Positions 3,161-45,800 are shown, counted from the first letter of the stretch. The stretch: 64,000 nt of DNA from Marsupella aquatica (GCA_973895155.1 OZ316895.1:18051880-18115879), one strand, 5' to 3'. Translations and numbers: made by a program. The notes: generated by a model from the letters alone, not told the origin.

Positions 3161-3272
3161 AGTCACCCTTAATTGTTTATATTTCCCTGTTTTTGTTACT
3201 ATACTAAGGTGTTTCCTAGGGTACACTCCTGATTTTTCTATTTAAACTAATGATTCCTGGCTAGGCATCACA

Positions 3273-8270: not shown

Positions 8271-8285
8271 TAGCTCCCTACTTAA

Positions 8286-16611: not shown

Positions 16612-16841
16612 AACGTCCTTTGAAAGGTCAATAATGAAACCGTGATCGTTGTGATACCCCTGGGCCCTTAGTCTTAACTAATACATGGAGGACGTGAGAA
16701 CGCTCAAAGGGTAGTTTTGATTCATTTTGAACTAATAATTATAATTATTATCGGTAATAAGGGAACTTTTAATGGTAAAATGGAAATAACAAGGGGTAAA
16801 TACGAAAAGGGCCCGATCGCAAGGGGTCCGCTTATTTTACA
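16612..16841 (-). mobile_element. Truncated AT-rich insertion (probable LTR fragment) in element B gag
   Basis: An AT-rich block breaks gag. On the minus strand it starts TGTAAAATAAG at 16841; the other end and a TSD were not found. Confidence 0.4.
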
Positions 16842-17573: not shown

Positions 17574-20189
17574 CTAATGTCTGGTTTGCTTGCCAGACCC
17601 GCCCGAGTTGGATTTGGAGCGGCCATCCCGCTGCCTTCTGAGCCGGTCGGCATCCTGCTTGAGCAGCTGGACCTGGTCCAACAGAGATTTGTTCTCTCGC
17701 TTTGCCGCGTCGGTCTCCTCCGTGGCTTCCTGGCACGCCTCTTCCAGTTGCAAGGCGTCACTCGTCATCTTGTCCACCAACTGGGCCTGCTTTGTGGCTT
17801 CTCCTTGAAGCCGTGCCACTTCCGCCTTCAGGGCGTCTATCTCGGTTGTGTCCCACTGGGCCCGAGCGTTGGCCTCCTCCACATCCTTTTGCCAGATGAT
17901 GGCTTGTCCCTTCAAGCCGTCAATTTGGGTTTGGAGCCGTGCAATCTTGGCATCCTTTCCTGCTCCATCCTGCTCTGCCACGGCTGCCTGGGCCCTAGCT
18001 TCTACCACCTAATCTTCAGTGGCCGCTACCTGAGGTCAAAGCAGTTGGAGTTTGATCTCTCGGGCTGACACTTTGCCTTTCGGGTGGGTAGACTCAAGCC
18101 AATACCGCTCTATCCTCTGCGTAGCCTCAGCCTGCACATGCCTTGCTTGCACGGCTGCAACCAATTCTTGGTTGAAGAAGTAGGCCACCTTCCGTGCCAT
18201 GTACTCCCCGGTATCCCGTGCAATTTTTTGGGAGAAGTCTCCCAGCAACCCATTCAAATACGTGCCTGGTGCAAAGAGTTCTGGGTACTCTAGACTATGC
18301 CCATCCGGGTTTGGGCAAGGGCAAACCTCAGCTTGCACGGGAGTCAGAGTGGTGACATCCAGTCCTTGAAATATGTCAGTAGAGGGGGCTGGGTTTGCAC
18401 GGGATGGGTGGTTCTCCTGGACAGCCGTGGAGGGTAACGGAGTGTCCTCCGTATCTGTAGTCTCGGGTCCGGGACCAGCCTCTGCCAACCCGGCCTCGAT
18501 TGCGCTGGCCTGGTTCATAGAATCTAGGGTCATGATAACCGCATTGTCCGGTAAAGACGGAGGGGCAGCAGCTGCTGGTTGTTGGGCCAGGGTAGTCGTG
18601 GGCCTCACGACCGCCGGACTTCTGGCCTCGGGCTGGAGTCGCCTTTCCTGGGCCGGGAATACCCACCTTGATGGGGTTAGCTCGGGCTCGTTGATCCGAG
18701 GGAGGCTTCGGCGGTCCAAACGAGCGTACCACTTGATGATGATTTTGATGTGGCTAGCCAGGTACGCCTTCCCGCCAAGGTACAAAGTCTTCCTTTGCCG
18801 CTCCATCTCCTTGTGGAACTTCTTGACGAAGAAAGAGGCCCACTTCCTAGGCCGGTAGTTCTTGACCTGGATGACTTGGGCGGCGGATATTTTGCCCCTT
18901 GGTTCCATCATGTGGAGGGCGTACCTCTGGAATTCCAGACACTTTGCTACCTCTGGGATGAGGCATGTCCTCATCAAGAATCCGTTGTCCATTGCTCCTT
19001 CAGCCGGGAAGCTAGAGGACTGATACTTGGCTCCTTTGCCCCCGGGAGCTTGTGACTCCACCCAATTTATTCCTTTGGGTAGGCCAAAGATCATCTTAAG
19101 CCGTTCCTCATTGAGGGACATCACTCTCCTGTGCGCATGGGTTTGTTGGCGGGCTTTGTCAAAGTTTTGGATGAACTCCGTCATGTCCTGCCCGTAGTAC
19201 CTGCTTCCATTCCAAGGGAGAGAGGCAAGGTGTTCAAACCCTTGGGTCTTTAGGTAGCATGCATGCTTAGGGTGTAGAATGTTCTTGTGGACATTCTCCC
19301 CAATGCGATGCATGGTCAACTTGGCCACCGCAACCGTGGCCAAAGACAGCCCTGATACGGCTGCGGGTTCCTTTCTCTTCCTACCCCGAGACTGGTTCAC
19401 GGGGTGACTTGAAGAGGGGGACATCTCCCCATCCTCTCTATCGGGCGGCGGCAGCGCTACCGCTGTAAGCACTGGTGCTGGGGCTGCCACTGTCACTGTG
19501 TTATCCACCCGGGCTTGTGTGGGTGGTGTCAGGTTGCCCGGTGCATGCTGATTTGCACCTCAAGGTCGCCGGTTTAGGGGAGGGTGAGCTTCCTCATCTT
19601 TGGAACTGATGTTCACCACGTTTACCACGGATTGCACCCAGAGGGGTGGTGCGACCGGTGGTGGAGAACAGCTTGGCTGAGGCCAAGGTGGTGTTGGTGC
19701 GGGCACCAATGAGTTGGCGATGGTTGTAGTTGGAGGATGCGCCATAAGATTCAGGAAGTCTGAGGGGAAGCCGAGTGAGGTCAGGATAGATGCCTCACCC
19801 GTAGCTGCGGTACCAAACTGATGGTCTATGGAAGCCTGGACTTTGGCGGGGATATGATTGAAGTGGTGTCACTATAAGTTGATCGTGCCCGAGAGTGTGA
19901 AGACCTTGTCCGGAAGCCAAAGGAGTGCTTCCTAGAAACCAACATACTTTGGGCCGTCAAAGAAGTATTTGGAGATCTTGTTGGCTCAATAGAGCTCGCT
20001 TTGGAATGAGAGGTTGAAATCGCCATTATAGTGAGAGCGTCCGGCCAGGCGGATGAGTCGTTCGTACTGCCTTTCGGTTTTGTACCAGCGCGGGTTGACC
20101 TCGGCCAACGACTTTGCTAAATGATTTCCGATGGATAGAAATTGAAGCCAAAACCAAAGGGCAGAACTAGACATAATAGTGACAGACAT
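17574..20189 (-). pseudogene. Family-B LTR-encoded ~870-codon ORF, broken only by in-frame stops
   Basis: ORFs 19986-20189, 19560-19745, 18036-19508 and 17574-18008 are all in one frame and separated by TGA/TAG stops; several of these are sense codons in the other LTR. Confidence 0.85.
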
Positions 20190-20290
20190 ACAGGGAATGG
20201 CGGTGGATGACTAAAGAGCAAATGAGCAAGTTGGGATCAAAGCTGGCATGACGGGTGAAATGCTCGTGCTTTGCAAGAGAATGGCCCGCC

Positions 20291-20297
20291 TTTTATA
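20291..20297 (-). promoter_or_regulatory. TATA box candidate upstream of the family-B LTR ORF
   Basis: TATAAAAG about 100 nt upstream of ATG 20189, conserved at 7891-7897 in the other LTR. Confidence 0.5.
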
Positions 20298-20654
20298 CCC
20301 TGAGGGGTCGTCGGCCGAATGGTCCCTTCCTCCTTTTGATAGGCCAATCCTTGCACGCTTGCAGTGTACCGGCCACTCTGCAGGTCCGGGTTAGCGTGTC
20401 AGCGAGCCGCCCCCTTGAGTCTTTATAAGGACCCAAGGGGACATCCCCACACGCATGTAACCCCGGGGTACGAATGGCGCTCCGCCGCCAGCCCGAGCGT
20501 AAATGCTCCTTATTGACTAATGATGTCCTAGTCATGATTACTACCTACTTTAGTGTCTTTATGCTAATTACTACGGACTACTATGTCCTTAGCGTGCGTG
20601 CTAAGCACGAAGTAGACCGGATTACTCATTAACCACCATGCTGGCCGCCTCACA

Positions 20655-25954: not shown

Positions 25955-27312
25955 ATGAATTCGATAGAGAAGCTTCAATTTAAGGCTCTAACTATTGATG
26001 GTGCCAATTATTTATCCTGGTCACTTGATGTCGAAGCATATCTTTACTCAAAAGACCTACAGGACACTATTTTAACCGATGCAGGCCTAACATTACAGCA
26101 AAAGGCGAGAGCATTAATCTTCATACGCCACCACCTTGTAGAGCCACTCAAGATTCAATATCTCAATCAATACAACCCCCGAATTCTTTGGGAAGATCTC
26201 AAATCACGGTTCGATCACATGAGCCTAGTCTCTCTGCCGGCCGCACGCCACGACTGGATAAATTTGCGTGTACAGGACCACACTTCTATATCAAACTACA
26301 ACGGAGAACTTTTTCGCATCACCTCTCAACTCGCAATCTGTGGCCACCTAGTTAATGACGCCGAGCAGATTGAAAGAACCCTATCAACGTTCAGTGCCGA
26401 AAATCTCATCCTTGCATCCCAATACCGAAACATGGGTTTTACAAAATATTCCGAGCTAATTGCTCATATGCTTCTTGCTGAGAAGCACCAAATACTCCTA
26501 CTGGAAAATGCAAAATCTCGCCCACCAGGTACAGCCGCTCCACCACCCAAACCTGAAATCAATTTCAACAGACAAAATGATAAGATCCGAGGCAGAGGAC
26601 GTGGCACATTCAGGGGGAGAGGACAACGACCATTTATCAGAGGCAGAAACCAACAAAGGGGCAGAGGCTATGGACAATTCCATAATTTGGAATATCAATC
26701 TTCTGGACATTTTTATCGAGGAAGAGGACAACGTGGACGAGGTAATGGATACAGAGGCAGAGGCCGTAGCGGAGGCCGTGGCCGAGGACCTAATAGTTGG
26801 ACCAGAGAGAACGAAAATCTGACTGAATGTTTCAGGTGCGGCACAAAGGGTCACCTACAGAAAAATTGCCGATCTCCTGCCCACCTGGTCCAACTTTATA
26901 AACAAAGCATGGAATTACCTAGTAATGAAGCCCATGGAAACTATATGGAAACTACAGATGATATTGAGGGATATGCACCAGAAGTACATACTGCCCAATT
27001 AGGAGCTAATCCCTCTATGCTCGACGATCATCACAACTGTATTGTCGATAGCGGCACATCTCATTCCATCCTACGCCATAAAGATTATTTCCTACGTATC
27101 ACTCCATCCCACAGATCCATGACAACCATAACTGGACCTAATCATATAGAGGAAGGTTATGGTCCAGCACAAGTCAGATTCCCCAAGGGTACAATTCTCC
27201 ACATAGACTCCGCCATTTATGCTCCGCGGGCTACTCGAAACCTGATAAGTTTCAGTGATATACGCGCCAATAAATTCCACATTCATACAGAGACATGTGG
27301 CAACCGGAGGTC
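25955..27312 (+). pseudogene. gag: Copia gag-protease, interrupted by element A
   Basis: RG-rich tract, knuckle CFRCGTKGHLQKNC and protease motif CIVDSGTSHSI. Confidence 0.92.
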
Positions 27313-30300
27313 TGTGATGCCTAGACAGGAATCACTCGGCCAGTTAAGTGGGTAAAGCAGGAAGGCACCCTAGGAACACCTTAGTATAGGGACAAAACAA
27401 GGAAAATATAAACCATTAGGGGCAACCATGGAACCCGGGCCGAGGCCGGAGGTAAGGACGCTGAGGGTGAAAACTCGATTAGGGTCAGGGCGCGTTAAGC
27501 GTCGGCGGCTAGGAAGGATCAACGAGAAGAAGAACCGGCAGAGGAGAGGGGTAAGGAGCGCTTGCAGGAGATGGTGGCTCATTTGCGAGCACGAACTAGG
27601 CAGACGACTACGGGAGGCCAACTACTGTCAGCTGCTTAGGCAAGCACTCGGGGAGAGAGTAGATACCGACGATCGACCTAAGGAGGGTATGAGCAACGTC
27701 AATCAAGCGGCACATTTCTGGGGATGCCTGTTCGAACGGGCAACTGAGTACATCAAGACTTACGAGGACGAGGAATCAGAAAGGGCAGCTCGAGAACGGC
27801 AGGAGCTCGCTCGATTGTGGGAGCTGCAGAAGACGGCTTTCTTAGGAGGCGAACTCATCAAGGACGAGTTCCTGTGGACGCCTACTTCCAATCAACTCGA
27901 CGATCTTCTGTTTTGCAAAGACAGCGTCGTCGGCATCCGAGAGGCCATCAAGAACTGCAACGACATACACTGGGAATTAAAGGGTAGCACGGAAAGGTGG
28001 ACCCAGGCAACGGTGCTAGGAGAAACCTCCACAGCAGCAGAGATGAAGAGGAAGGGAGCCGTCAACGATGAAGCCACCCCGGCAAAAAGAACGAGGTCGG
28101 CGGCACCAAAGAAGCCAGCCGAGCAGCAGAGCAGGAGGCAGGGAGAAGCCGAAGAGGAGGAGGTCGATCCCATCAAGGCCATTCCAACCAGGGATGACAC
28201 CTGGAAGGGCTGGGCGGCAACCCTACCGGTGGAGGTGCAACTACATTTTGCATGGGAGGAGGATGCATGCTTCACGGCCATGCAGACCAAGAAGTACCAA
28301 GGCTTCATGGCCGGATCCGGCTTAGAGGCCTTTGTAAGATTACCATGGCTGAAGCCGGAGGTACCGGAGTCAGACCTATTAGAATTCGTGGGGTCATGGG
28401 AACCCGAGACCAATTGCACGAGGATATATGGGAAGGATTTCTATCTTACTCCCAAGGTAATTGCCGAAGTGTTTGGCTTGCCGATAGGCAATAAGACCAA
28501 ATTTGATACCAGGAAGACCTTACCTGACAAGGAGTTCCGGTCGTTCCCCGGGCCATCAATGAAGAATGGCTTCTTCCGGAACACCTGCACCAACCCGCAC
28601 ATAGGAGAGATGATCGACTTCTTGCGGGTGACCATGCATTGTAACTTGCCGAGGGCAGAGATCGGCAAGGCACAGGTCTATCTGGCAGAAAGGCCAAACC
28701 CAAGCCGGGACTACAACGGGTACCTCCTCAACCAATTGAAGAAGATCTTAAAGGAGGAGCAACAGGTAATCGGCATGGGGAGCGTGTCGCGGCTTGGCTA
28801 TCACATGCCGCTGTTGTGCCGGTATGCCAGAGGTCAGACTTTTGCCCCGGTACTTCCCCTGCAGGTAAGGGCACCCGAGGAAGCTCCAACGCCGAGGCCG
28901 TTGGCTGAGAAGCCTCAACCACCTGTTAGCCCTACGATCGAGCAGGTGTTTAGGCCCAGGAAGGAGGACTTGCCAATGCAGCAACCAGGCATGCAGAGTC
29001 TGCTGAAACTACTGGAGAACGAAAAGAAATCGGCATCGGCAACAACAACGGCAACGGCAACAATGCAGGACACTACTACAAAGGTAGGCCTACACCGGCT
29101 CACAAGAGAAAACCCCTTTGCTGGAGACAAGGAGAGAATCAGGTCGGAATCCAAGCCCGGTGTTCAAATGTATGTGGGAATCTCAAGCTCCGAATCTGAG
29201 GCAGAATTTCCTGAAGCTCCTACCGACGAAGAGGAGAGGGAGAAGCCGGACGGCCAAGAAGTAGAGGAGGCAGTGGAGGACTGCAACCATGATAATTCCG
29301 GCTATGGGTCGGACCATCACGTCCCAGGAGTAAGGACCTGTGGCCGGTTTGTCCCCACACTTCCAAGGGTAGTGCGAGGGGACCCCAACCAGCAGAGTAG
29401 CCCTGAGTCTCCCCCACCAGATGTTGCTCCCCCGAGCTTCGACGGCATAAAACAGACGGTGCAGGAATTTCAGGAGCGAATCAAGCAGGAAGAGGAGGCA
29501 GCCCTGGCTAGGGAAAAGGATTTACCAGGAGGAGATTGGCCGGAGGACATCAGGCGGCTAGCCAAAAAAGGAAGCAAACCTCTAGCCACGATTGAAGAGA
29601 TCCGCAAGACGGCTTGGGAGCAGAGGCCGCGATGGGCGATGCCGATTACTTCTACTTACTCCACCTATGCTAAGAATAGAGCCATGGAGTATGGTGAGAT
29701 GTGTGGGGAACTTGCGCTCGGCATCTTTGGAGAGGAGTTGGAGGTAGGACCCTTTTTCCATAGGGAGCAGTTGGAGAAGCACCAATTAGAAGAAGCGGTG
29801 GCTTTAGAGAGAAGCAAGAAGGACGAGGTCATTCGGCGGCTTAGGAGGATGGAAGCCGAGATTGAAGATCTAAGGGCGGCCAAGAAAGCCCAAGATGAAC
29901 TGCGGATTAAACGACATGAGCTGAACATCATGCAGGGGCAGTTGGACACTGCGCAGGCTGATAATCAGAATATCAAGGATAAATTGACTCAGACGCAGGG
30001 AGAGTTGGCCGACACGATCAAAGAGAGGGAGAAGTGGAAGCAAGAGCTGAAGAATACAGAGGAGGCCCACATAACAGCCTACAGCCGGGCCATGGCGGAG
30101 ACCCAAAGAAAGGAATGGGCGTTGAAGGGGGAGCTCGAGAAAATCCGCGGAGCCCTTGAGCAGAAGGAGGCCGAGTTAGGGAAATCCTATCAAGGGATTA
30201 TGGCGCTGCAGCAGGAGCTTGCGTCCCTGACGGCCAGCTTCAAGGCCGACCTAAGGGAGAAGGACGAGATGCTCGAACAGACTTACGCCAAGATGAACCA

Positions 30301-31975
30301 GATGGAGTCTGTCATCATTGCAGAGCTCGACAAGGAGCTAAGAGCAACCCAGGAGGAGAGGACTACCTTGAAACAAGAACGGGAGGAAGCCCAGAAGGAA
30401 CTAGAGGAGGCACGCAAGGACCTGGATAAGACCCAGGAGGAGTTGGAGGAAATCACGAGGAAGATGGAGAACCTCCAGCGGCGGGCCGACAACCAAACGG
30501 AGCGGCTGAAGAAACAAGCCGCAGTATTTAAGTGCTTGTCTTCATCAGGCCCAACTCCAATTGGGGCAACCAAGTTACCAGGAGTGGTACTGGCCGAAGA
30601 AAAAGCCGCGCCACCTGCACCAGTGCCGGAAGTAAGTGGGAAGGGGAAGGGACCAGCTGCCGAACCAGAAAAGAAGAAGAAGCGGAAACCTTCAGGGTCA
30701 AGGAGTAATCCGACTCCACAAGCCGTGGTGACCAAGGAGGTAGAACCAGCACCATCCTCCGACATGAATACGGCAATAGATCCCGCTATCATCACAGGTG
30801 GGGGTGGTGCGGCCCAAGCCGAACTACTCAGTAATGAGGCCGGTATCCCAGATCCGCCTCTTGAGCAGGCCGGGGAGACCCAAGCCGTGGCTGAGGCCGT
30901 AACCGGTTCCCGAGCCGATGCCGACGCCGATGGTGGACCCAGTCAGGCCGATGGAGAGTTGACTCAGTCAAGGGCAGGTAATCTGTCAGAGAATGAACCT
31001 ACGGCAGTGGCTGAGGAGGAAGCATTGGGGGCGTCCATTAAGGATCCACCACCGGTGTCATGACGGTGCAAGGGCGCCATTCCTTTTAGGGAGGGCGGAC
31101 GTGGAGGGAGGAGGCGTGAGTGGGCAGGGCGGGCGCTGATCTCCAAGTTTAGGATTAGGATCAGGACCAGGAGCGGCCCTGACACTTAGCTTAGTGGGAT
31201 TGCGGTTCCACTGGTAGGAGCAACACTTGTGCTCCTGCCTTGCTGTACATAGGTAGATTCGGGCAAGTAGATTACTGTTAAGTAGATTAGGCTTACGATG
31301 CAAAGAATGGCGGATCCACTACCAGGATAAGTACCTGGGCAGCGGGGAGCTCAGGGCCTCTTCTTTAGCAAGTTTTTAGTTTGCACCAGCCGGGTTGGGA
31401 TCAAGTAGTACGAGAAGCTCTCGGTTAGTCATACAGTGACCCTTGTGTATATTCATGTTTCCTCATGCCTAAGAGCTGAATAGAGTTGGCCTCACGGCTT
31501 AGTTCGCAGAACTTGTGTATGAGATGTACTGTTTGTATGGCAAGTGCATGGTATGACTCAGTCAGAATGAGTCATTTTGCTATTTGTGTGTCGCATTAAC
31601 TTGTGTGAAGAGTGCCCACATCAACCAAAAGGAAGGAAAGTAAGCAGGGGAGTGAGAGTTGGATGTGTCGAGCTGAGAGAGGTCTTAGCGGCTTAACCAA
31701 GCCTATTGGGGATCATTCCGGCGGCGGAATCCAAACATACCTAACAAGACGGAGGGGAAGACAGGGGAAGGCCTAGATTAGGCCGGCTACGTATCTCATG
31801 ACCCGATGAAGGATCTGTCCAGTATATGTGTGTAAAATGTTAATAGTAGTAGTAGAAGGTTAGCAGCGTCCCATGCTGCTAAGCCGCGGAAACGGCCTCG
31901 CCAAGCGCAAAACCTGCGGGAATCGGCTTGAGCTGGGGGGTTTCTTGGGTTTAGGGAGCCATGGCACGCACCACA
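27313..31975 (+). repeat. 5' LTR of element A (4663 bp)
   Basis: Same length as 38198-42860 with roughly 35 substitutions counted by eye; followed by the PBS. Confidence 0.97.
27428..31063 (+). CDS. LTR-encoded 1211-aa protein: globular domain, long coiled coil, NLS-like motifs
   Basis: Uninterrupted ORF starting 115 nt into the LTR; the true start could be the later in-frame ATG at 27689. Confidence 0.85.
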   Translation: MEPGPRPEVRTLRVKTRLGSGRVKRRRLGRINEKKNRQRRGVRSACRRWWLICEHELGRRLREANYCQLLRQALGERVDTDDRPKEGMSNVNQAAHFWGCLFERATEYIKTYEDEESERAARERQELARLWELQKTAFLGGELIKDEFLWTPTSNQLDDLLFCKDSVVGIREAIKNCNDIHWELKGSTERWTQATVLGETSTAAEMKRKGAVNDEATPAKRTRSAAPKKPAEQQSRRQGEAEEEEVDPIKAIPTRDDTWKGWAATLPVEVQLHFAWEEDACFTAMQTKKYQGFMAGSGLEAFVRLPWLKPEVPESDLLEFVGSWEPETNCTRIYGKDFYLTPKVIAEVFGLPIGNKTKFDTRKTLPDKEFRSFPGPSMKNGFFRNTCTNPHIGEMIDFLRVTMHCNLPRAEIGKAQVYLAERPNPSRDYNGYLLNQLKKILKEEQQVIGMGSVSRLGYHMPLLCRYARGQTFAPVLPLQVRAPEEAPTPRPLAEKPQPPVSPTIEQVFRPRKEDLPMQQPGMQSLLKLLENEKKSASATTTATATMQDTTTKVGLHRLTRENPFAGDKERIRSESKPGVQMYVGISSSESEAEFPEAPTDEEEREKPDGQEVEEAVEDCNHDNSGYGSDHHVPGVRTCGRFVPTLPRVVRGDPNQQSSPESPPPDVAPPSFDGIKQTVQEFQERIKQEEEAALAREKDLPGGDWPEDIRRLAKKGSKPLATIEEIRKTAWEQRPRWAMPITSTYSTYAKNRAMEYGEMCGELALGIFGEELEVGPFFHREQLEKHQLEEAVALERSKKDEVIRRLRRMEAEIEDLRAAKKAQDELRIKRHELNIMQGQLDTAQADNQNIKDKLTQTQGELADTIKEREKWKQELKNTEEAHITAYSRAMAETQRKEWALKGELEKIRGALEQKEAELGKSYQGIMALQQELASLTASFKADLREKDEMLEQTYAKMNQMESVIIAELDKELRATQEERTTLKQEREEAQKELEEARKDLDKTQEELEEITRKMENLQRRADNQTERLKKQAAVFKCLSSSGPTPIGATKLPGVVLAEEKAAPPAPVPEVSGKGKGPAAEPEKKKKRKPSGSRSNPTPQAVVTKEVEPAPSSDMNTAIDPAIITGGGGAAQAELLSNEAGIPDPPLEQAGETQAVAEAVTGSRADADADGGPSQADGELTQSRAGNLSENEPTAVAEEEALGASIKDPPPVS

Positions 31976-31979
31976 TTTT

Positions 31980-31997
31980 TGGCGCTAGATGGAGGGG
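31980..31997 (+). other. Primer binding site, probably tRNA-Asn
   Basis: TGGCGCTAGATGGAGGGG, one mismatch to the complement of the plant tRNA-Asn 3' end as I recall it (CCCTCCTTCTAGCG-CCA). Confidence 0.75.
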
Positions 31998-32044
31998 GCA
32001 TTTCTTAAGCCGTGAGATATGAAGTTAGAACGGAAGCGTAGGTA

Positions 32045-35000
32045 ATGACTGACCTTACGCCGAGGGAAGAAAGAGTGATTCAACGGGAGAGAGCTCGACT
32101 GCAGCAGCTCGCCGGGTGGCATGATACACAGCGACTGAGAGGGGCAGAAAGAGCTGGTAGCTCCGAAACTGGAAGTGGCGTCGAAGAAGACATACCAGAA
32201 GAAGAGTCGGTAAGGAGAAGTGAGTCTCCAACCGACATGGGGGAACCAGAGGCACGGCCAGACGAGAGGCCAGGGACCAGATTGAGCCAGCGGTCGCGCA
32301 TACATTACAAGGCATTTCATGGGAGAGGAGATGAGGATCCGGACGAATGGTTGGATGATTTCGAGGGAACCGCTGCAGCAAATGGAGAATCGGCCATCAA
32401 GATGCAGATTCTTCCCGGCCTGTTCAAGGGTGAGGCTAGGCCTTGGTACAGAGCATTAGATGTGGAAGATCAAGCCATCTGGGATATCTTCAAAACACTC
32501 TTTGTTAAGGAGTTTCGACCCATTGGAACTTCAGAACTAGCAGTGCTGAAGTTGGGACAACTTCGGTTCAAGGAGAACAAATCCTTCAGGAAGTTCTTGC
32601 AACGCTTTCAAAAACTAGTAAGACGTACAAAGACCAATGCATCTGAAGGTATGCAACTTCAATGGTTGGTGAATGCTTTGCCACAGAAGATGAGTTTTGC
32701 AATTAGGAAGGAGAACCCAGAGACCTTAGCCAAAGCAATTAAGGATATTCAATTATACATTACTGCGGATATCACAAGCCGGAAGAAACAGCTTAAGTCT
32801 GAGAGTTCCTCATCAGAAGAGGGATCACCCCATAAGAAAAAAGATAAGAAGAAGAAACATTCTAAGAAGTCTAGAAGTGATAAGTCAAGCTCGGATAGTG
32901 GGAGTAACAAGAGTGAGTCATCTTCTAGTTCTGAAGAAGAAAAAACTAGGAAAAGGAAGGGCAGAAGGAGAGGGAAGACGAAAGTCAAGCTGGAGGCTAA
33001 GCCACCAGATAACATCGTAGCCCTTACCGAGCAACTTAAGGCTATCATTGCAGAGGTAAAACCGAAGAAGAAGGTAGTACAGGAGGATAGCTCTGTATGG
33101 TGTGCCTTATGTTATAAAACCGGACACCATAAAGATGCGTGTCCTAAGCTTAATACTAATCATGTTCGGCATGTGGCCGAGATCAGACCATGTCAGGGAG
33201 AAGTAGAGTACTTTTTAGGAGATGCCGCTGATAGTGTTTTCGGCATCAGTGAGACTGGAGCACGAGACCTATCCAACAGACCTGCATCTCTATGGTCAGG
33301 GTTAAGGAACAATCCAGGAGAGATGTATCCTCGGATTATTCAGAACCCGTCAGTACCTCCTAGGCCGAATGTGCAAAGATTTGCGGCGTGCTATAATTGT
33401 GGTCAACCTGGCCATTTTGCTAGAGAATGCCCGAATGCACGCAAACAGGGTGATGGACAACCAGCTCAGCTATGTATGGGATGCCGACAGGAAGGTCATA
33501 TGCTAGGGCAATGTCCTACTTGGTTGGCAGGCCTGGCCGCAAATCATAAACTTTTGCCGGTCAAGATCCTACCGCCAGGCACTACCCCCGGAGGAGTTCA
33601 AATCAACCACATCGAACTAGGATGGCAAGAGGATGCCGAGGCAGAGTTCGTACCATCTGATGATGAGGCCGAAGCCCTATCAACCTTCTCAGAGGAGGAT
33701 TTAGATCATGATTGCTACCGGGTCTCTACTCGATCTACCAGAAGGAAGGAAAGGTGGGATAGGCTGGCCAAAAATAAAGGGAAGGTTACGGAGGAAAAGA
33801 TCGACTCTTCGTCAACATCAACAGAAGGAGAAGGGAGGGCTCTGGCAATACAGGTAAGCCATGAGCCCACCAGTGAAACCAATCCTTCACAAGATAGCGA
33901 CTTCAATCGAGATCATCCTAAGTTGTTCTACCCCTCTGTTACGGCTAGTGTTAAGGAACAACTAAGAGAATTAGAAACCCTGGAGAATACCGAAGCCATT
34001 GCCAAGGATGTAAAATGAGCAAAAGCATTGTTTGCTTCGGAAGACCCAACAGCTGTGGAGACTAGCGTGGCAAAACTGGCCGAATCCAAGAGGGAGACAC
34101 CACCAGAGGAGAAGCCGATTGTTCCCTATGACCTGGCTAAAGATGTACTAGAATCTAGAGTCTCGGCAACAGTAGGTCAACTATTGAAAAATAGCCCGTA
34201 CTTCCGGAAGCAATTAAGGAAGGCTATTCTCGGCAAGCCGAGATTACCCAAGGTAGCAACCAGATCCGACGTACTAATGATAGAAGAAGATCAAGGAGCC
34301 CCAGCATTACCATTAATGATTCAAGGAGAATTATTACTACGGGTACCCATCGATGGAGGATCAGGGGTATGTATTATGATTGATTCAACAGCAAAAGGGT
34401 GGGGTCTAACACCGGAGATGACTGGAAGAGTGTTGAACATGGCCAATGGATATCAGGTCATTCCTACGGGAGTGTTAACCGGCATCAAGACAGAGATAGG
34501 AGGTATCTTCTTTAGCATTAACTATGTAGTAATGAAGCCGGTAAATCCTACGTCATTCCGGCTATTGATTGGTAGGCCATGGCTGTACCTAGCCGAGGTA
34601 ATAGAAGATTGGGGTAAAAAGCAATTCACTTTCGGGACCCCCTCTATCACGGTATCCTGGGACACTAAGGATGACCGTAGGAAAAGCATAAGGGAAGTAG
34701 ATGGGTACGATAGTGGACTGGAGTCAGCCAATGAAGTACGTTGGTTAGAATGCCTCACTGACCTAACCGAAGAAAGTGTCTTTGGACCAGAGGTACCCCC
34801 CAGCGGATTATGGCAAGAACCAATGGAAGGTGACTTGGAAGAAGAAGACGAAGAGGTCGAGGACTGCTTTACAATAGAATCCACCTTTTTAGCTGCAATT
34901 CCGGAGGAAGTAAAGGATGTAGACCAATTGGATGAAACGGCTAAGTGGGGAGCAGTAGCAGGGACAGTGGATTTTCTGCAGGCGTTGTGGCAGAGCCGGC

Positions 35001-38000
35001 AGGGTTCACAACGCCATCGATCATCGGCAAGGAATTAAATACCAAGGGATCGGCATACAAGCCGATTACGAGGGCAGAACAAATTGAGGCCCTATTAGAA
35101 GCCGAGAGAGCATAGCGGCCTGACTCTCAGGAGCAAGAGGTGGATGAGATGGACAGACACAATCCAGAGCCAAGGCAGGAAGGGGAGCCGACCACCAATT
35201 CAAAACCGAATAGACCGGCAAGGGGACAATCTATGGACACCAAGGACGGGACCGACTCGGCTAGTCCAGCCGAGATTCCAGTTTATGGAGGTATGAGATT
35301 AGAGAGACTGGAAGCCGAACTGGACCCGAATTTGAAGAAGCAGATTAATATGATCCAAGCATGGCAATATCGGAAGCTCAACTTAGGAGAGGGAAGAGAA
35401 CTGAACTTAGGGAGAAACCTAGCACCTGAGCTCGAGAAAGAGATCAGTGACTTATTGATTGAATTTCAGGATGTGTTTGCACGGAGTCACCAAGATCTAA
35501 AGGGAGTAGATCCAACACTAGGGGAACATCGAATTGATCTCATGTTAGGAGCCAAATCATTTTGACAACCAATTCGAAGGATGAACCCAAAATATTCCCT
35601 GCTGGTCAAAACAGAAATCGACAAACTAGTGGAAGCTGGATTCATCACTCCAGTCCTGCATTCAGACTGGGTGTCTCCAATTGTGATAGTTCCCAAGAAA
35701 GCTGGACCCGATGGTAAACCCAAGATCCGGGTTTGTCAGGATTACAGGAAGCTAAATGAAGCAACATTAAAAGACCATTTTCCTTTACCGTTTACTGATA
35801 TGGTACTAGACATGGTAGCCAGTCATGAACTATATTCATTCATGGATGGATACTCTGGTTATAACCAAATCAGGATTCGGCAGGAAGACCAAATCAAGAC
35901 GACCTTCATCACGGAATGGGGATCTATGTCTTCAATCGTATGTCGTTTGGACTTTGCAACGCACCAGCTATGTTCCAACGATTAATGGTGAACATTTTTC
36001 ATGATTACTTGAGAAAGTTCATGGAAATCTTCATTGATGACTTTGCAGTATTCGGGAAGGCATCGAAACATGCTAAATACCTCAGGAAAACCTTCATGAG
36101 ATGTAGAGAGGTGGGTCTCAAGTTACACCCAGATAAATGTTTTTTTGCAGTAACCGAGGGGGTGCTACTAGGTCACAAGGTATCAAGGAAGGGCATTGAG
36201 ATTGACAAAGGTAAGCTAGCAGTATGGCTAGATATCATGCAACCTAAGAACATAAAGGATGTAAGATCCTTCTTGGGATGCATTGGTTACTATCGCCAGT
36301 TCATCAAGGATTTTGCCAAGCTAGCTTTACCATTAACCAACATGCTCAAGGCAGGAGCAGACTTCGAACCCACACCCGAACGAGTCACAGCGGTGGTAGA
36401 ATTGAAGCAGATGTTAGTAGAGGCCCCAGTCATGATAGCACCGGACTGGAACAAAGATTTTCATGTTTTTGTAGATGTCTCGGGCTTCTGTATTGGCTCA
36501 GTACTAAGTCAGTTGGATGAGAAAGGAAGGGACCATCCCATATACTTCGCAAGCCGTCAGCTTGCCGATGCCGAACGGAACTACTCTACCACGGAAAGAG
36601 AAGCATTAGGAGTCATTTATTCTTGTAAAAAGTTTAGGCATTATTTACTAGGGTACAAGGTAATCTTTCATACTGATCATGAAAGTTTGAAGTACCTAGT
36701 CAATAAGCCGGACCTTACAGGCAGAGTAGCAAGATGGATTTTGCTATTACAGGAGTTTGACTATGAGCTGAGGATCAAGCCGGGAAAGTTACATGCCAAT
36801 GCCGACTTCTTTTCAAGGATCACAGGTAAACCTGCCACGGATTGCATCGATGATCGATTCCCCGACGAGGAGCTATTCGTTGTGGAAATAGCTGGTACAT
36901 GGTACCCTGAGATTTTACAATTTCTCAGCACTTCCAGATTACAGCCAGGATTAAGCCGAGAGCAAGCCGCAGTCTTTGTGCGGAAGGTCAGACAGTATCA
37001 GTGCATTAAAGGCATACTGCACAAGCATGGAATCAACGGCACGATTCAAAGGTGTTTAGAAAAGAGAGAGGTAAAACGAGTCCTACGGGCCATGCATGGA
37101 GAGGAGGCCGGAGGACATTTTGCCCAGTAACCACGTCTAAGAAGATATTAAATGCCGGTTACTGGTGGCCCACCTTGCACAAAGATGTCTATCAGTTTAT
37201 CAAACAATGCGATCCTTGTCAACGAGCGGGAGGACCAAGGGCGTCCACCAGACATCCACTGCACCCTATTCTACCTCTGGCACCATTCGAGAAGTGGGGT
37301 ATTGATTACATTGGACCTCTGAAACCACTGACCCACCCTCGACGGAACAAGTACATAATCCTGGCTACGGATTATGCAACTAAATGGGTAGAGGCCAGAC
37401 CAACAACGAAGGATGATGCAATTACTACGGCTAGATTCATGTATGAGCAGATCTTCACCAGGTATGGAGCACCCCTAGAATTAGTTAGTGATAGAGGAAC
37501 CCATTTTTTGAATGATATAATTAGTCATTTAAATGAGCAGTATTTAGTTAAACATAGGCCTACTACTCCCTACCATCCAAAGGCAAACGGGTTGACAGAA
37601 CGAGCAAACGGAATTATAGGAAAGATATTGAACAAGACAGTAGCTCAGAACAAACTCGATTGGGATGATAAATTGTTTGCTGCTGTTTTTGCTTACAATC
37701 TTGCCTATAAATCCACTACCGGTCATACACCCTTCTTCTTAACCTTTGGACAAGAAGCCCTGGTACCCATGCAACTTGAGATACCGACATTTCAAGTTAC
37801 AATTGAGGAAAGAGCCTCAGCGGAGGAGAGCCTAAAGGAACGAGAATATAGGTTAGAAGCTTTAGAGGAGGCGAGAATGATTTCAGCCGAGAGAGTAGAA
37901 TATAGACAGAATATCATGAAGCAGCAGTATGATAAAAAGTTAAAAGTAGTTAGTATTCATACCGGTAATCTTGTGCTACTTTATGACAGTAGGTATAGTA

Positions 38001-38209
38001 GGTTTCCTGGAAAGCTTTACACTCGCTGGTTAGGACCCTTTAGAGTAACCATGATGTTCCCCAATGGCTCCGTACAATTGGCCAACATTACGGGAGAGGT
38101 ATATCCAGTTCGCATCCATTATGACCGCCTCAAGAAATACTATATGGACGAAGATGAAGTTGTTCGCGAGGATGCTTCACAATTAAGTGGGGAGCTATGT
38201 GATGCCTAG
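32045..38209 (+). pseudogene. gag-pol: Element A gag-pol (three CCHC knuckles, PR, RT, RH, INT) with stops and frameshifts
   Basis: PR IDGGSG, RT FIDDF, RH FVDVS..NYSTTERE, INT WGIDYIG/SDRG/NGLTE/WLGPF. Lesions near 34016, ~34975, ~35113, 35563, ~35920 and ~37128. Confidence 0.95.
38185..38194 (+). other. Polypurine tract of element A
   Basis: AAGTGGGGAG three bases before the 3' LTR; the equivalent sequence precedes the family-B 3' LTR. Confidence 0.85.
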
Positions 38210-41200
38210 ACAGGAATCACTCGGCCAGTTAAGTGGGTAAAGCAGGAAGGCACCCTAGGAACACCTTAGTATAGGGACAAAACAAGGAAAATATAAACCA
38301 TTAGGGGCAACCATGGAACCCGGGCCGAGGCCGGAGGTAAGGACGCTGAGGGTGAAAACTCGATTAGGGTCAGGGCGCGTTAAGCGTCGGCGGCTAGGAA
38401 GGATCAACGGGAAGAAGAACCGGCAGAGGAGAGGGGTAAGGAGCGCTTGCAGGAGATGGTGGCTCATTTGCGAGCACGAACTAGGCAGACGACTACGGGA
38501 GGCCAACTACTGTCAGCTGCTTAGGCAAGCACTCGGGGAGAGAGTAGATACCGACGATCGACCTAAGGAGGGTATGAGCAACGTCAATCAAGCGGCACAT
38601 TTCTGGGGATGCCTGTTCGAACGGGCAACTGAGTACATCAAGACTTACGAGGACGAGGAATCAGAAAGGGCAGCTCGAGAACGGCAGGAGCTCGCTCGAT
38701 TGTGGGAGCTGCAGAAGATGGCTTTCTTAGGAGGCAAACTCATCAAGGACGAGTTCCTGTGGACGCCTACTTCCAATCAACTCGACGATCTTCTGTTTTG
38801 CAAAGACAGCGTCGTCGGCATCCGAGAGGCCATCAAGAACTGCAACGACATACACTGGGAATTAAAGGGTAGCACGGAAAGGTGGACCCAGGCAACGGTG
38901 CTAGGAGAAACCTCCACAACAGCAGAGATGAAGAGGAAGGGAGCCGTCAACGATGAAGCCACCCCGGCAAAAAGAACAAGGTCGGCGGCACCAAAGAAGC
39001 CAGCCGAGCAGCAGAGCAGGAGGCAGGGAGAAGCCGAAGAGGAGGAGGTCGATCCCATCAAGGCCATTCCAACTAGGGATGACACCTGGAAGGGCTGGGC
39101 GGCAACCCTACCAGTGGAGGTGCAACTACATTTTGCATGGGAGGAGGATGCATGCTTCACGGCCATGCAGACCAAGAAGTACCAAGGCTTCATGGCCGGA
39201 TCCGGCTTAGAGGCCTTTGTAAGATTACCATGGCTGAAGCCGGAGGTACCGGAGTCAGACCTATTAGAATTCGTGGGGTCATGGGAACCCGAGACCAATT
39301 GCACGAGGATATATGGGAAGGATTTCTATCTTACTCCCAAGGTAATTGCCGAAGTGTTTGGCTTGCCGATAGGCAATAAGACCAAATTTGATACCAGGAA
39401 GACCTTACCTGACAAGGAGTTCCGGTCGTTCCCCGGGCCATCAACGAAGAATGGCTTCTTCCGGGACACCTGCACCAACCCGCACATAGGAGAGATGATC
39501 GACTTCTTGCGGGTGACCATGCATTGTAACTTGCCGAGGGCAGAGATCGGCAAGGCACAGGTCTATCTGGCAGAAAGGCCAGACCCAAGCCGGGACTACA
39601 ACGGGTACCTCCTCAACCAATTGAAGAAGATCTTAAAGGAGGAGCAACAGGTAATCGGCATGGGGAGCGTGTCGCGGCTTGGCTATCACATGCCGCTGTT
39701 GTGCCGGTATGCTAGAGGTCAGACTTTTGCCCCGGTACTTCCCCTGCAGGTAAGGGCACCCGAGGAAGCTCCAACGCCGAGGCCGTTGGCTGAGAAGCCT
39801 CAACCACCTGTTAGCCCTACGATCGAGCAGGTGTTTAGGCCCAGGAAGGAGGACTTGCCGATGCAGCAACCAGGCATGCAGAGTCTGCTGAAACTACTGG
39901 AGAACGAAAAGAAATCGGCATCGGCAACAACAACGGCAACGGCAACAATGCAGGACACTACTACAGAGGTAGGCCTACACCGGCTCACAAGAGAAAACCC
40001 CTTTGCTGGAGACAAGGAGAGAATCAGGCCGGAATCCAAGCCCGGTGTTCGAATGTACGTGGGAATCTCAAGCTCCGAATCTGAGGCAGAATTGCCTGAA
40101 GCTCCTACCGACGAAGAGGAGAGGGAGAAGCCGGACGGCCAAGAAGTAGAGGAGGCAGTGGAGGACTGCAACCATGATAATTCCGGCTATGGGTCGGACC
40201 ATCACGTCCCAGGAGTAAGGACCTGTGGCCGGTTTGTCCCCACACTTCCAAGGGTAGTGCGAGGGGACCCCAACCAGCAGAGTAGCCCTGAGTCTCCCCC
40301 ACCAGATGTTGCTCCCCCGAGCTTCGACGGCATAAAACAGACGGTGCAGGAATTTCAGGAGCGAATCAAGCAGGAAGAGGAGGCAGCCCTGGCTAGGGAA
40401 AAGGATTTACCAGGAGGAGATTGGCCGGAGGACATCAGGCGGCTAGCCAAAAAAGGAAGCAAACCTCTAGCCACGATTGAAGAGATCCGCAAGATGGCTT
40501 GGGAGCAGAGGCCGCGATGGGCGATGCCGATTACTTCTACTTACTCCACCTACGCTAAGAATAGAGCCATGGAGTATGGTGAGATGTGTGGGGAACTTGC
40601 GCTCGGCATCTTTGGAGAGGAGTTGGAGGTAGGACCCTTTTTCCATAGGGAGCAGTTGGAGAAGCACCAATTAGAAGAAGCGGTGGCTTTAGAGAGAAGC
40701 AAGAAGGACGAGGTCATTCGGCGGCTTAGGAGGATGGAAGCCGAGATTGAAGATCTAAGGGCGGCCAAGAAAGCCCAAGATGAACTGCGGATTAAACGAC
40801 ATGAGCTGAACATCATGCAGGGGCAGTTGGACACCGCGCAGGCTGATAATCAGAATATCAAGGATAAACTGACTCAGACGCAGGGAGAGTTGGCCGACAC
40901 GATCAAAGAGAGGGAGAAGTGGAAGCAAGAGCTGAAGAATACAGAGGAGGCCCACATAACAGCCTACAGCCGGGCCATGGCGGAGACCCAAAGAAAGGAA
41001 TGGGCGTTGAAGGGGGAGCTCGAGAAAATCCGCGGAGCCCTTGAGCAGAAGGAGGCCGAGTTAGCGAAATCCTATCAAGGGATTATGGCGCTACAGCAGG
41101 AGCTTGCGTCCCTGACGGCCAGCTTCAAGGCCGACCTAAGGGAGAAGGACGAGATGCTCGAACAGACTTACGCCAAGATGAACCAGATGGAGTCTGTCAT

Positions 41201-42860
41201 CATTGTAGAGCTCGACAAGGAGCTAAGAGCAACCCAGGAGGAGAGGACTACCTTGAAACAAGAACGGGAGGAAGCCCAGAAGGAACTAGAGGAGGCACGC
41301 AAGGACCTGGATGAGACCCAGGAGGAGTTGGAGGAAATCACGAGGAAGATGGAGAACCTCCAGCGGCGGGCCGACAACCAAACGGAGCGGCTGAAGAAAC
41401 AAGCCGCAGTATTTAAGTGCTTGTCTTCATCAGGCCCAACTCCAATTGGGGCAACCAAGTTACCAGGAGTGGTACTGGCCGAAGAAAAAGCCGCGCCACC
41501 TGCACCAGTGCCGGAAGTAAGTGGGAAGGGGAAGGGACCAGCTGCCGAACCAGAAAAGAAGAAGAAGCGGAAACCTTCAGGGTCAAGGAGTAATCCGACT
41601 CCACAAGCCGTGGTGACCAAGGAGGTAGAACCAGCACCATCCTCCGACATGAATACGGCAATAGATCCCGCTATCATCACAGGTGGGGGTGGTGCGGCCC
41701 AAGCCGAACTACTCAGTAATGAGGCCGGTATCCCAGATCCGCCTCTTGAGCAGGCCGGGGAGACCCAAGCCGTGGCTGAGGCCGTAACCGGTTCCCGAGC
41801 CGATGCCGACGCCGATGGTGGACCCAGTCAGGCCGATGGAGAGTTGACTCAGTCAAGGGCAGGTAATCTGTCAGAGAATGAACCTACGGCAGTGGCTGAG
41901 GAGGAAGCGTTGGGGGCGTCCATTAAGGATCCACCACCGGTGTCGTGACGGTGCAAGGGCGCCGTTCCTTTTAGGGAGGGCGGACGTGGAGGGAGGAGGC
42001 GTGAGTGGGCAGGGCGGGCGCTGATCTCCAAGTTTAGGATTAGGATCAGGACCAGGAGCGGCCCTGACACTTAGCTTAGTGGGATTGCGGTTCCACTAGT
42101 AGGAGCAACACTTGTGCTCCTGCCTTGCTGTACATAGGTAGATTCGGGCAAGTAGATTACTGTTAAGTAGATTAGGCTTACGATGCAAAGAATGGCGGAT
42201 CCACTACCAGGATAAGTACCTGGGCAGCGGGGAGCTCAGGGCCTCTTCTTTAGCAAGTTTTTAGTTTGCACCAGCCGGGCTGGGATCAAGTAGTACGAGA
42301 AGCTCTCGGTTAGTCATACAGTGACCCTTGTGTATATTCATGTTTCCTCATGCCTAAGAGCTGAATAGAGTTGGCCTCACGGCTTAGTTCGCAGAACTTG
42401 TGTATGAGATGTACTGTTTGTATGGCAAGTGCATGGTATGACTCAGTCAGAATGAGTCATTTTGCTATTTGTGTGTCGCATTAACTTGTGTGACGAGTGC
42501 CCACATCAACCAAAAGGAAGGAAAGTAAGCAGGGGAGTGAGAGTTGGATGTGTCGAGCTGAGAGAGGTCTTAGCGGCTTAACCAAGCCTATTGGGGATCA
42601 TTCCGGCGGCGGAATCCAAACATACCTAACAAGACGGAGGGGAAGACAGGGGAAGGCCTAGATTAGGCCGGCTACGTATCTCATGACCCGATGAAGGATC
42701 TGTCCAGTATATGTGTGTAAAATGTTAATAGTAGTAGTAGAAGGTTAGCAGCGTCCCATGCCGCTAAGCCGCGGAAACGGCCTCGCCAAGCGCGAAACCT
42801 GTGGGAATCGGCTTGAGCTGGGGGGTTTCTTGGGTTTAGGGAGCCATGGCACGCACCACA
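38198..42860 (+). repeat. 3' LTR of element A (4663 bp)
   Basis: Direct repeat of 27313-31975, followed by the TSD. Confidence 0.97.
38313..41948 (+). CDS. Second intact copy of the LTR-encoded 1211-aa protein
   Basis: Same 115-nt offset in the LTR, same length and near-identical protein. Confidence 0.85.
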   Translation: MEPGPRPEVRTLRVKTRLGSGRVKRRRLGRINGKKNRQRRGVRSACRRWWLICEHELGRRLREANYCQLLRQALGERVDTDDRPKEGMSNVNQAAHFWGCLFERATEYIKTYEDEESERAARERQELARLWELQKMAFLGGKLIKDEFLWTPTSNQLDDLLFCKDSVVGIREAIKNCNDIHWELKGSTERWTQATVLGETSTTAEMKRKGAVNDEATPAKRTRSAAPKKPAEQQSRRQGEAEEEEVDPIKAIPTRDDTWKGWAATLPVEVQLHFAWEEDACFTAMQTKKYQGFMAGSGLEAFVRLPWLKPEVPESDLLEFVGSWEPETNCTRIYGKDFYLTPKVIAEVFGLPIGNKTKFDTRKTLPDKEFRSFPGPSTKNGFFRDTCTNPHIGEMIDFLRVTMHCNLPRAEIGKAQVYLAERPDPSRDYNGYLLNQLKKILKEEQQVIGMGSVSRLGYHMPLLCRYARGQTFAPVLPLQVRAPEEAPTPRPLAEKPQPPVSPTIEQVFRPRKEDLPMQQPGMQSLLKLLENEKKSASATTTATATMQDTTTEVGLHRLTRENPFAGDKERIRPESKPGVRMYVGISSSESEAELPEAPTDEEEREKPDGQEVEEAVEDCNHDNSGYGSDHHVPGVRTCGRFVPTLPRVVRGDPNQQSSPESPPPDVAPPSFDGIKQTVQEFQERIKQEEEAALAREKDLPGGDWPEDIRRLAKKGSKPLATIEEIRKMAWEQRPRWAMPITSTYSTYAKNRAMEYGEMCGELALGIFGEELEVGPFFHREQLEKHQLEEAVALERSKKDEVIRRLRRMEAEIEDLRAAKKAQDELRIKRHELNIMQGQLDTAQADNQNIKDKLTQTQGELADTIKEREKWKQELKNTEEAHITAYSRAMAETQRKEWALKGELEKIRGALEQKEAELAKSYQGIMALQQELASLTASFKADLREKDEMLEQTYAKMNQMESVIIVELDKELRATQEERTTLKQEREEAQKELEEARKDLDETQEELEEITRKMENLQRRADNQTERLKKQAAVFKCLSSSGPTPIGATKLPGVVLAEEKAAPPAPVPEVSGKGKGPAAEPEKKKKRKPSGSRSNPTPQAVVTKEVEPAPSSDMNTAIDPAIITGGGGAAQAELLSNEAGIPDPPLEQAGETQAVAEAVTGSRADADADGGPSQADGELTQSRAGNLSENEPTAVAEEEALGASIKDPPPVS

Positions 42861-45800
42861 AGGTCCTACATATCCTGGAAAATACCACATCAGGGAGATT
42901 AGTGCGAGAGATACTCCCCATATATCCCCCAGGACTCTACATCACCCGAATCTATTCATATCATGCTACAAGTACTTCACTGACTTTAACACAAATATGG
43001 CATAATCGCCTTGGACATCCTGGTACAAGTATGTACCACAATATACTTAGGGCTACCGTGGGCATACCTAAAGGCGTTCACCCATCTACTACCAGCAAAC
43101 CCTGCCTCGCATGCTCACAAGGAAAAATGGTTACCTGTCCCTCACCATCCAAGACAATACATCAGATACCACAATTTTTGGAGAGAATACACGCTGATGT
43201 CTGTGGCCCCATTGACCCTCCTTCTGGCCCATTCCGATATTTCCTAGTTATCATTGATGCCTCTACTAAGTGGTCACAGGTCTCCCTGCTCTCTACCCGT
43301 AACCTGGTCTTCCCACGAATATTATCGCACATATTGAAATTAAAATACCAATTCCCAGAGAATCCCATCAAAACCATTAGAGTTGATAACGCGGGGGAAT
43401 TTACCTCCAAAACTTTCGATACCTTTTGTGAAATTGCAGGTATCAATACAGAATATCCGGTTCCACATGTTCACTTTTAGAATGGTCTTGCAAAATCCAT
43501 AATCAAATGAATACAGATGGTGGCCAGACCTCTCCTGATGCAGTCAAATTTACCAGCATCAGCTTGGGGCCATGCGGTCCTGCATGCAGCTGCCCTTATT
43601 CGACTGAGACCGTCCTCATTTAATACACAGACCCCACATTTTCTAGCATATGGATTACCACCAGACATCACACATCTACAAATTTTTGGCTGCCTGGTAC
43701 TTGTCCCAATTTTAGGTCCCAAGAGAACTAAAATGGGACCTCAGAGACAGCGCGGTATCTATGTGGGCTTTGACTCACGCTCTATTATAAGATGTTTGGA
43801 ACCTTCCACAGCAGATGTTTTTAAAGCACGGTTCCAAGACTGCCATTTCTTTGAAGACGATTTTCCAACCCTTACAGAAGATCCCATGAGAAATGGCAAT
43901 GTACCAGTGAAAGACTTACAATGGTTGTCTCCTCGCCTGCTTACAGAGGACCACCGAACTAAAGAAACAGATCTGGAAGTACAACGTGTTCTCCACTTAC
44001 AATAGATGCTTATGAAACTTCCTGATGCATTCAACGATGCAGCCACTGTCACTCGCTCACACATCGAAGCAGCCAACATACCAGCTCGAATTTCTCGGCA
44101 GCCTACACCAGCCACTCACGCTGCACCCAAGGCCAAAAGAGGACGCCCACTGGGATCCAAGGACTCTCATCCAAGACAGTCCCGCACGAGTGTAGCTCGT
44201 CCATCTCCCACCATTACACCAACCATAGAACCATCTTCACAAGGACCAGCCGATAATGAGGAGATCACAATTAATTACGTACATACCGGGAAGATAATGC
44301 AGCGTGATACAATCCGAATTGATGATATCTTTGCATTCCAGATTTCCGAGGACATTATCAATACAACTCCTGATCCCCTAACCATTGCTGAGGCCCGAAC
44401 TCGCCCGGATTGGCCACAATGGGAGCTAGCTATCAATTCAGAACTGGACTCCCTAATCAGACAAAAAGTTTTTGGGCCCATCATTCCTGCACCTGCCGGA
44501 CTTCATCTTACAGGATACAGATTTATTTTTGTTAGAAAATGAAATGCGAAAGGAGAAGTTATCAGACATAAAGCACGCCTAGTCGCGAAGGGCTATACCC
44601 AGATCCCCGGCCGGGACTTTGATCAAACATATTCTCCTGTCATGGATTCCATCACATATAGATATCTTATTGCATATGCTCTTATCCACAAACTAGTAAT
44701 GCATATTTTAGATGTGATTATTGCCTATCTATATGGTACCCTTGATACCAAAATTTATATGAAGGCACCCCCCAAACTCATCAAGCGATTGACGTTTCAC
44801 ATTGAGGGGGAGAAAACCGGTAAACTAAGCCCAGGTCTACAACCTGGAGTACAGCAAACTTGTCCTACAGGCAATTTGACTTCAGTGACGACTGAGACTG
44901 GACCTTTAGTCCCAACCACACAAGATGTGCTACACACATCCGCTCAGAGGAAACGAATGTCTTCCTCACAGGTTACCCCTGTTACACAAACAAAGAAAGT
45001 TAAAAGAGAACTTGCAGTTCAAGTACTTCGCTCTCTATATGGTTTAAAACAGAGTGGGTGGACCTGGTATAAACGCTTCAAAGCTGAAATGATTGCACTG
45101 AATTTTATTACTGACGATATTGCCCCTTGCCTATTTCTCAAACAGGACGGAAATGAATTCGTCATTATAGCAATTTATGTTGACGACATCAATATTTTTG
45201 GCACAGCAAAAATTACAGCTGATACAATAGACATCCTAAAGAAGATATTCGAGATGCGGGACATAGGTAAACCCACCTATTGCTTGGGCTTACAGTTTAA
45301 TCACTTGCATCATGGCATACTCATTACTCAATCTACCTATACTGAGAAAGTATTAAAACAGTTTAACATGGAGACTGCTTACCCTGTTAGCACTCCTATG
45401 GATTTGAGATCCTCAGATCCTGCAAAGGATACATTCAGGAAATGGACTGCACGAGAAGCCATTCTTGGCCCAGAAAAGCCTTACCTCTCAGCAATCGGGG
45501 CTCTCATGTACCTGGCTACACAGTCCCGTCCTGATATCTCTTTTGCAGTCAATCTTCTTGCACGCCATAGTGCCAAACCCACTATTCGTCATTGGAATGG
45601 CGTAAAGCGAGTATTCCGTTACCTGCAAGGAACCATAGACCTGGGACTATTCTTTCCCAAGCAGTCAGAAAATCTATTGGTGGGATATGCAGACGCAGGA
45701 TACCTTTCAGACCCTGACGATGCAAAATCCCAAACGGGATATGTTTTTCTTCAAGGAGGTACTGCTATCTCCTGGAGAAGCTGCAAACAAACATTGACAG

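Follow-up and report, generated by a model that had tools for sequence, protein, structure and literature searches.

The stretch examined here is a 64-kb window (64,000 nucleotides) of the Marsupella aquatica genome (GCA_973895155.1, OZ316895.1:18051880-18115879). It contains a 15.5-kb Ty3/Gypsy retrotransposon, element A, whose two long terminal repeats (LTRs) almost certainly each hold a real, selected gene. The LTRs lie at 27313..31975 and 38198..42860 on the plus strand, as does all of element A. Both are 4663 bp long with TG...CA ends, and on self-alignment they form an ungapped direct repeat that begins with TGTGA and finishes with CACA. They differ by 34 substitutions, 31 of them transitions (Kimura two-parameter distance, K2P, 0.0073). 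A 5-bp target site duplication (TSD), AGGTC, flanks them at 27308..27312 and 42861..42865. Four T residues separate the 5' LTR from a primer binding site (PBS)-like sequence, TGGCGCTAGA (31980..31997), which we take to be matched to tRNA-Asn. The polypurine tract (PPT; 38181..38197) overlaps the end of the integrase, and element B, a second family described below, has a near-identical tract. A first-pass annotation had set the LTR boundaries from the TSD, ends, PBS and PPT, and the self-alignment and flanks agree with them.

An LTR gene in element A

An open frame of 1211 codons fills 78% of each LTR (27428-31063 and 38313-41948), in the sense direction and uninterrupted in both copies, as first annotated. 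The annotation took all 1211 residues as the gene; the open frame stands but the gene length does not. The first 87 codons (27428..27688) lack coding constraint and are likely promoter or leader. Because of this, and because homologues P0025, P0029 and P0021 and element B all start with a Met and then an FW motif, in line with Met88 of A, the protein likely starts at Met88 and has 1124 aa (27689..31063 in the 5' LTR; 38574..41948, also open, in the 3' LTR).

Three parts can be recognized in the predicted protein. The N-terminal conserved domain (27689..28027, ~110 aa) belongs to no known family and is also found in B and in Calypogeia homologues, though its link to homologues outside the window is weak taken alone (E 0.009). 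The core domain (28205..28840, aa 260-471) has a VANC21/PMD/DUF1985-like predicted fold. A predicted coiled coil (29798..30547, aa 791-1040) is charged and proline-free, with coiled-coil Pfam matches that are weak and under cut-off. Motifs resembling nuclear localization signals (NLSs) are at aa 218 and aa 1080, and no transmembrane segment was found, with no 19-residue window over 0.83 mean hydropathy. The NLS-like motifs, a coiled coil of about 250 aa and the lack of a transmembrane segment had all been noted before. The remaining, non-coding 3' part of the 5' LTR spans 31064..31975.

Between the LTRs, gag (32045..34018; Retrotrans_gag, zinc knuckle) is followed by a broken pol (34019..38209) with protease-like, reverse transcriptase (RT), RNase H (RH) and integrase regions. 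The protease is known by its position and a DGGSG motif only, with no Pfam match. Stops at 34016, 35036 and 35563, together with shifts of frame near 35100, 35950 and 37125, give 5-6 lesions in total, close to the six or so first counted; the one that terminates gag may be natural. The 6.2 kb of gag-pol (32045-38209) thus has 5-6 lesions and the 7.3 kb of LTR ORF none, while the LTRs differ by only 0.7%. The lesions may be older than the insertion, with a defective template mobilized in trans and the LTR gene intact.

Element A is inserted in a Copia pol, which it splits, with gag to the left and the pre-integrase, integrase and RT regions to the right. An identical 161-bp direct repeat (25446-25606 and 47032-47192) probably marks the LTRs of this host Copia element. 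Contig depth rises at the 5' edge of A, and the loose end of a contig from another organism falls exactly at 27313.

Related copies and purifying selection

The boundaries of A recur in other copies. Copy C (59946..64000, minus strand) is 97% identical and has the same 3' end with no PBS behind it; its start is beyond the window. Its gene has a frameshift and an apparently frame-keeping internal deletion (about aa 609-767). Copy D (1..3272, minus strand), from an A-related subfamily (about 80%), has the same 5' end as A, and its end is beyond the window. The gene in D is decayed and without the coiled coil, again with a large internal deletion that is apparently frame-keeping. No solo LTR with both ends was demonstrable within the window.

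Element B (5100..20654, minus strand) has a TSD of CTGAA, TG...CA ends and a decayed gag-pol, and its RT-RH is 62-68% identical to that of A. Its 3' LTR (8270-5100, minus) carries a 759-bp deletion. The 5' LTR end and PBS are lost, so the LTR length of about 4.0 kb is inferred. Both LTRs of B hold a homologue of the LTR gene of A. The one in the 5' LTR (17574..20174, minus) has a single frame of 866 codons that includes 7 premature stops, and encodes an A-type N-terminal domain, the core domain and the coiled coil. The B and A core domains are 25% identical (E 9e-19). Element B is the strongest evidence that the gene belongs to the LTR in general, and it answers the earlier concern that A might be a one-off duplication.

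The surroundings of B are complex. Other sequence of about 2.6 kb (13100-15700, minus) breaks its gag, and at 16640-17231 (minus) about 600 bp of unrelated sequence stands in place of the 5' LTR end, PBS and gag start. B itself sits in another decayed coiled-coil frame (20655-21300 and 4300-5099, minus) that continues on both sides of the TSD. The core-domain profile had no match in that frame, which is perhaps a third element's accessory gene.

To measure constraint we compared A with D at codons with a single change, against a null that keeps the base change and CpG context. Synonymous changes made up 21/30 at aa 88-200 (expected 9.0), 12/19 at aa 201-260 (expected 5.4), 43/55 at aa 261-470 (expected 16.7) and 46/78 at aa 471-700 (expected 24.2). 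In the tail past aa 700 they were 22/49 (expected 15.4, P 0.03), and in codons 1-87 only 4/30 (expected 8.2). For aa 251-480 the dN/dS against D is 0.18 (0.11-0.28), not the value near 1 that the first-pass annotation had named, together with a lack of transcripts, as a refutation; shifted frames give values >1. Variants in contigs from other organisms (38 inside the ORF, from 40 listed of 216) were synonymous in 18/29 cases at aa 88-491 and in 2/9 at aa 1-87.

Post-insertion differences served as controls. The two LTR ORFs of A differ at 27 positions, 12 of them synonymous (expected 8.6, P 0.11), which fits neutrality; the evidence for selection is therefore the comparison with other copies and not the fact that both ORFs are open. 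The two LTRs of B gave 26/65 (expected 19.1, P 0.03) and 8/23 (expected 7.1), slightly above expectation, so the null is slightly lenient, yet this falls far short of the A-D excess. By these sequence comparisons, codons 88-700 of the LTR gene are under purifying selection.

The family is not confined to this locus. Between 50 and 76% of the words of the LTR are present in six public runs of four organisms, and the A family is abundant in runs X1-X4. Relative to internal sequence, summed contig depth in runs X1 and X2 was 4.1 and 3.5x for the ORF and 3.8 and 4.1x for the non-coding LTR end, with each ORF bin higher than each internal bin; this measure is no copy number and serves only as a hint that the ORF and LTR travel together.

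Transcription signals, classification and known systems

A TATA-like TATAAA (27407..27412), kept in copy D, is a candidate promoter of the LTR gene; in B, a canonical TATAAAAG is located 123 nt upstream of the gene start. After the stop codon both A and B have T- and TGTA-richer stretches (3 and 6 TGTA per 200 nt, respectively), and the one in A, near 31513-31712, provides candidate 3' end signals. A 21-nt hairpin-forming motif (31716-31736 in A; 5263-5283, minus, in B; 18/21 identical) matches better between the LTR ends of A and B than any other non-coding sequence. It had no match in Rfam and is a candidate packaging or dimerization signal.

Where the genomic RNA starts was judged from sequence signals, which are ambiguous. 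We give about even chances to an additional promoter, lacking a TATA, within the final 900 bp of the LTR, which would place the gene in U3. A single promoter would place it inside a 4-kb R, a less favored arrangement, or, less likely still, in U5 or the leader. In the boldest form, the 5' TATA would be the only promoter and the only 3' signal would follow the gene, so that the gene would lie in a ~4-kb R and genomic RNA would carry two copies. A consensus-like splice donor, AG/GTAAG, is at 27452, 45 nt past the TATA-like box and kept in D, and a possible acceptor is at 32040, just upstream of the gag ATG; the pair would matter for a gene located in R or U5.

Element A fits Ty3/Gypsy by its TG...CA LTRs, TSD, PBS, PPT and gag, protease, RT, RNase H, integrase order. 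No match to a chromodomain was found after the integrase, whose frame ends within the LTR, so A is not a chromovirus. The additional RNase H (aRH) that marks TatI-III, Ogre and Retand had no Pfam match in the gag-pol ORFs, and the integrase directly follows the RNase H. Membership in Athila was rejected, as the long internal stretch that holds an extra ORF after pol in Athila is absent from A, where the PPT overlaps the integrase end. Phygy and Selgy were rejected as well: A is 15.5 kb with a 5-bp TSD, whereas passages of PMC6317226 describe short elements and, for Phygy, an NCGN 4-bp target. In an RT-RH tree without labelled clade references, A groups with seven Calypogeia sequences and one unnamed sequence (support 1.0), inside a clade with Riccia and apart from seed-plant matches. 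A and B are likely a non-chromovirus Ty3/Gypsy lineage of liverworts. Non-chromovirus elements of non-seed plants without aRH are known (passages of PMC10508981, PMC13468544 and PMC6317226); they resemble A in this respect, but the passages describe no LTR gene, and Phygy and Selgy are short.

Accessory ORFs are otherwise familiar in such elements. According to parts of PMC6317226, Ogre, Retand and Athila elements often carry extra ORFs encoding PMD, Transposase_28 or Athila ORF-1 domains, and non-chromovirus LTRs reach about 5 kb; a review places plant additional ORFs (aORFs) in the internal region (PMC7264820). Like A, Ogre (PMD, PF10536), Retand (Transposase_28 with an Smc-like coiled coil) and Athila (ORF-1, PF03078) are non-chromovirus Gypsy elements with an accessory gene. 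The likeness extends to a PMD-like globular domain, a coiled coil and a proposed nuclear role (PMC7264820; passages of PMC6317226 and PMC11963269). Their ORFs, however, are internal, one per element and often antisense, while the gene of A is in both LTRs and sense. In grasses, Retrosat2, RIRE3 and RIRE8 have LTRs >3 kb and an extra ORF0 (PMC3485330), but ORF0 lies upstream of gag-pol, is treated separately from the LTR and belongs to a lineage unrelated to A. Our full-text literature search, which did not extend to Repbase and REXdb, found no retrotransposon described with a gene inside its LTRs, so no prior description of this architecture emerged. In A, unlike Ogre, Retand and Athila, pol runs directly into the 3' LTR, and the LTR protein has no Pfam match to their ORF families. 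Vertebrate retroviruses do have genes in or overlapping U3 (MMTV sag, HIV nef, foamy bel2), which like that of A are copied to both ends at each replication. Their proteins are unrelated to that of A and their ORFs are about a third of its size or less.

The core domain gave a whole-domain structural match to the VANC21 core (PDB 9lnk) at 11% identity, and is predicted to have the VANC21 fold. VANC21, the anti-silencing protein of the VANDAL21 (MuDR) DNA transposons found in eudicots, binds a short motif that occurs in arrays; the gene of A, in contrast, is inside the Gypsy LTRs of a non-seed-plant retrotransposon, and its protein has an extra N-terminal domain of no known family. MAIN, MAIL1 and MAIL2 (PMD-C) and Gypsy-encoded PMD-A reportedly belong to the same structural superfamily, and the atlas neighborhood agrees. 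The atlas neighbors of the LTR protein include an ATHILA ORF-1 cluster (0.88). Pfam models for PMD, DUF1985, Transposase_32 and ATHILA ORF-1 had above-cut-off matches in 0/29 family members and 0/17 proteins. The PMD phylogeny described in PMC5418596 covers angiosperms only, while the family of A is beyond the reach of the PMD model and located in LTRs.

Proposed function and competing explanations

The LTR protein probably has the VANC/PMD fold and binds DNA in the nucleus. The first-pass annotation had preferred a nuclear accessory role over an envelope role, and the lack of a transmembrane segment and the match to a DNA-bound plant transposon protein favor the same choice. We lean, with modest confidence, toward an anti-silencing protein that acts for its own family by binding DNA with the core. 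Each LTR would be a transcription unit that starts from a TATA close to the 5' end, takes in the ORF and stops at the T-rich 3' signals of that LTR. The protein would enter the nucleus by its basic motifs, oligomerize by its coiled coil and bind element DNA by its core, keeping family copies transcribable in trans against DNA methylation or Polycomb. Some points weigh against this proposal: the structural score against VANC21 is moderate, no exact 5-8-mer exceeded shuffles in three LTRs as VANC-type arrays would (exact words only), and the gene is known here from sequence alone.

The lack of exact-word arrays also suits a less probable alternative, in which the same gene and fold do another nuclear job and leave silencing marks unaffected. 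The protein would activate the LTR promoter in trans, as retroviral Tas/Tax do, or tether the integration complex to particular chromatin. The fold and NLSs are compatible with DNA or chromatin binding of any kind, plant aORFs are usually proposed to be regulatory (PMC7264820; passages of PMC11963269), and the element has no chromodomain. A and B are both nested in other transposons, but a window so rich in repeats would be expected to show nesting, and the two characterized branches of the fold (VANC, MAIN/MAIL) reportedly both act against a silencing pathway. An envelope-like or particle-associated protein, its long coiled coil serving particle assembly or cell-to-cell movement, is unlikely: the sense ORF directly follows pol, as env does, and the ATHILA ORF-1 cluster is among the atlas neighbors, but hydropathy never exceeds 0.83, there are two NLS-like motifs, and the core aligns to a DNA-bound nuclear protein.

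Slighter still is the chance that the protein limits its family, by self-restraint or a dominant-negative effect with dose rising with LTR number, or is kept for host benefit. In two runs LTR sequence is about four times as well represented as internal sequence, which would let gene dose run ahead of autonomous copies, and MAIN/MAIL1 are described as acting in silencing in a part of PMC5418596. However, the family is abundant in runs X1-X4, and the decay of B, C and D after insertion argues for selection during transposition and not on resident copies. It is most improbable, and already largely refuted, that there is no LTR gene at all and that the open frame reflects a single duplication, nesting of another element or chance in GC-rich sequence. 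The two ORFs of A are young and differ neutrally, and A is the one copy observed with both LTRs complete. Against this, the TSD, PBS and PPT adjoin the long repeats, C and D have the same ends, family B has the same layout, and purifying selection is frame-specific; 19/20 representative matches are plausible homologues, with four named Calypogeia clusters among ten looked up.

With the pol stop in the 3' LTR and the PPT overlapping the integrase, the element lacks an internal 3' region. Most simply, the LTR would have absorbed the extra-ORF stretch of Athila-like relatives: the plus-strand priming site would have moved to the integrase end, and the extra-ORF region would have become U3. Every insertion would then bring two gene copies and, given the LTR anatomy, each solo LTR would retain one whole. 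Solo-LTR formation, the usual host neutralization, would leave the gene in place. We suggest only tentatively that this is retrotransposon anti-silencing of VANC type, the first of its kind and LTR-built, with each solo LTR a complete, self-promoting suppressor gene and the fold an ancient land-plant retrotransposon invention older than angiosperm PMD genes and VANC.

The accessory gene of element A belongs to a known class; its location is undescribed, and its fold opens its function to testing. Extra-ORF function in plant Gypsy elements is treated as an open question in reviews (PMC7264820; passages of PMC6317226). A near-intact, high-copy family whose accessory protein has the predicted fold of a proven anti-silencing factor offers a specific test. 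Liverworts are tractable, and both DNA methylation and PRC2 act on their transposons. A part of PMC5418596 gives two scenarios for the PMD/VANC fold, from host genes to transposons or the reverse, and a relative in non-seed-plant retrotransposons bears on the direction. Annotation pipelines limited to internal extra ORFs would miss the LTR gene or label it a host gene.

Elsewhere in the window, CACTA transposase pieces (Transposase_21, DUF4218) at 52672-56067 (minus) have a CpG observed/expected ratio of 0.30, against 0.64-0.84 in the Gypsy LTRs. A LINE-like 3' fragment lies at 24364-25441 (minus), and a 316-aa ORF with a gag-like final stretch at 22673-23623 (plus).
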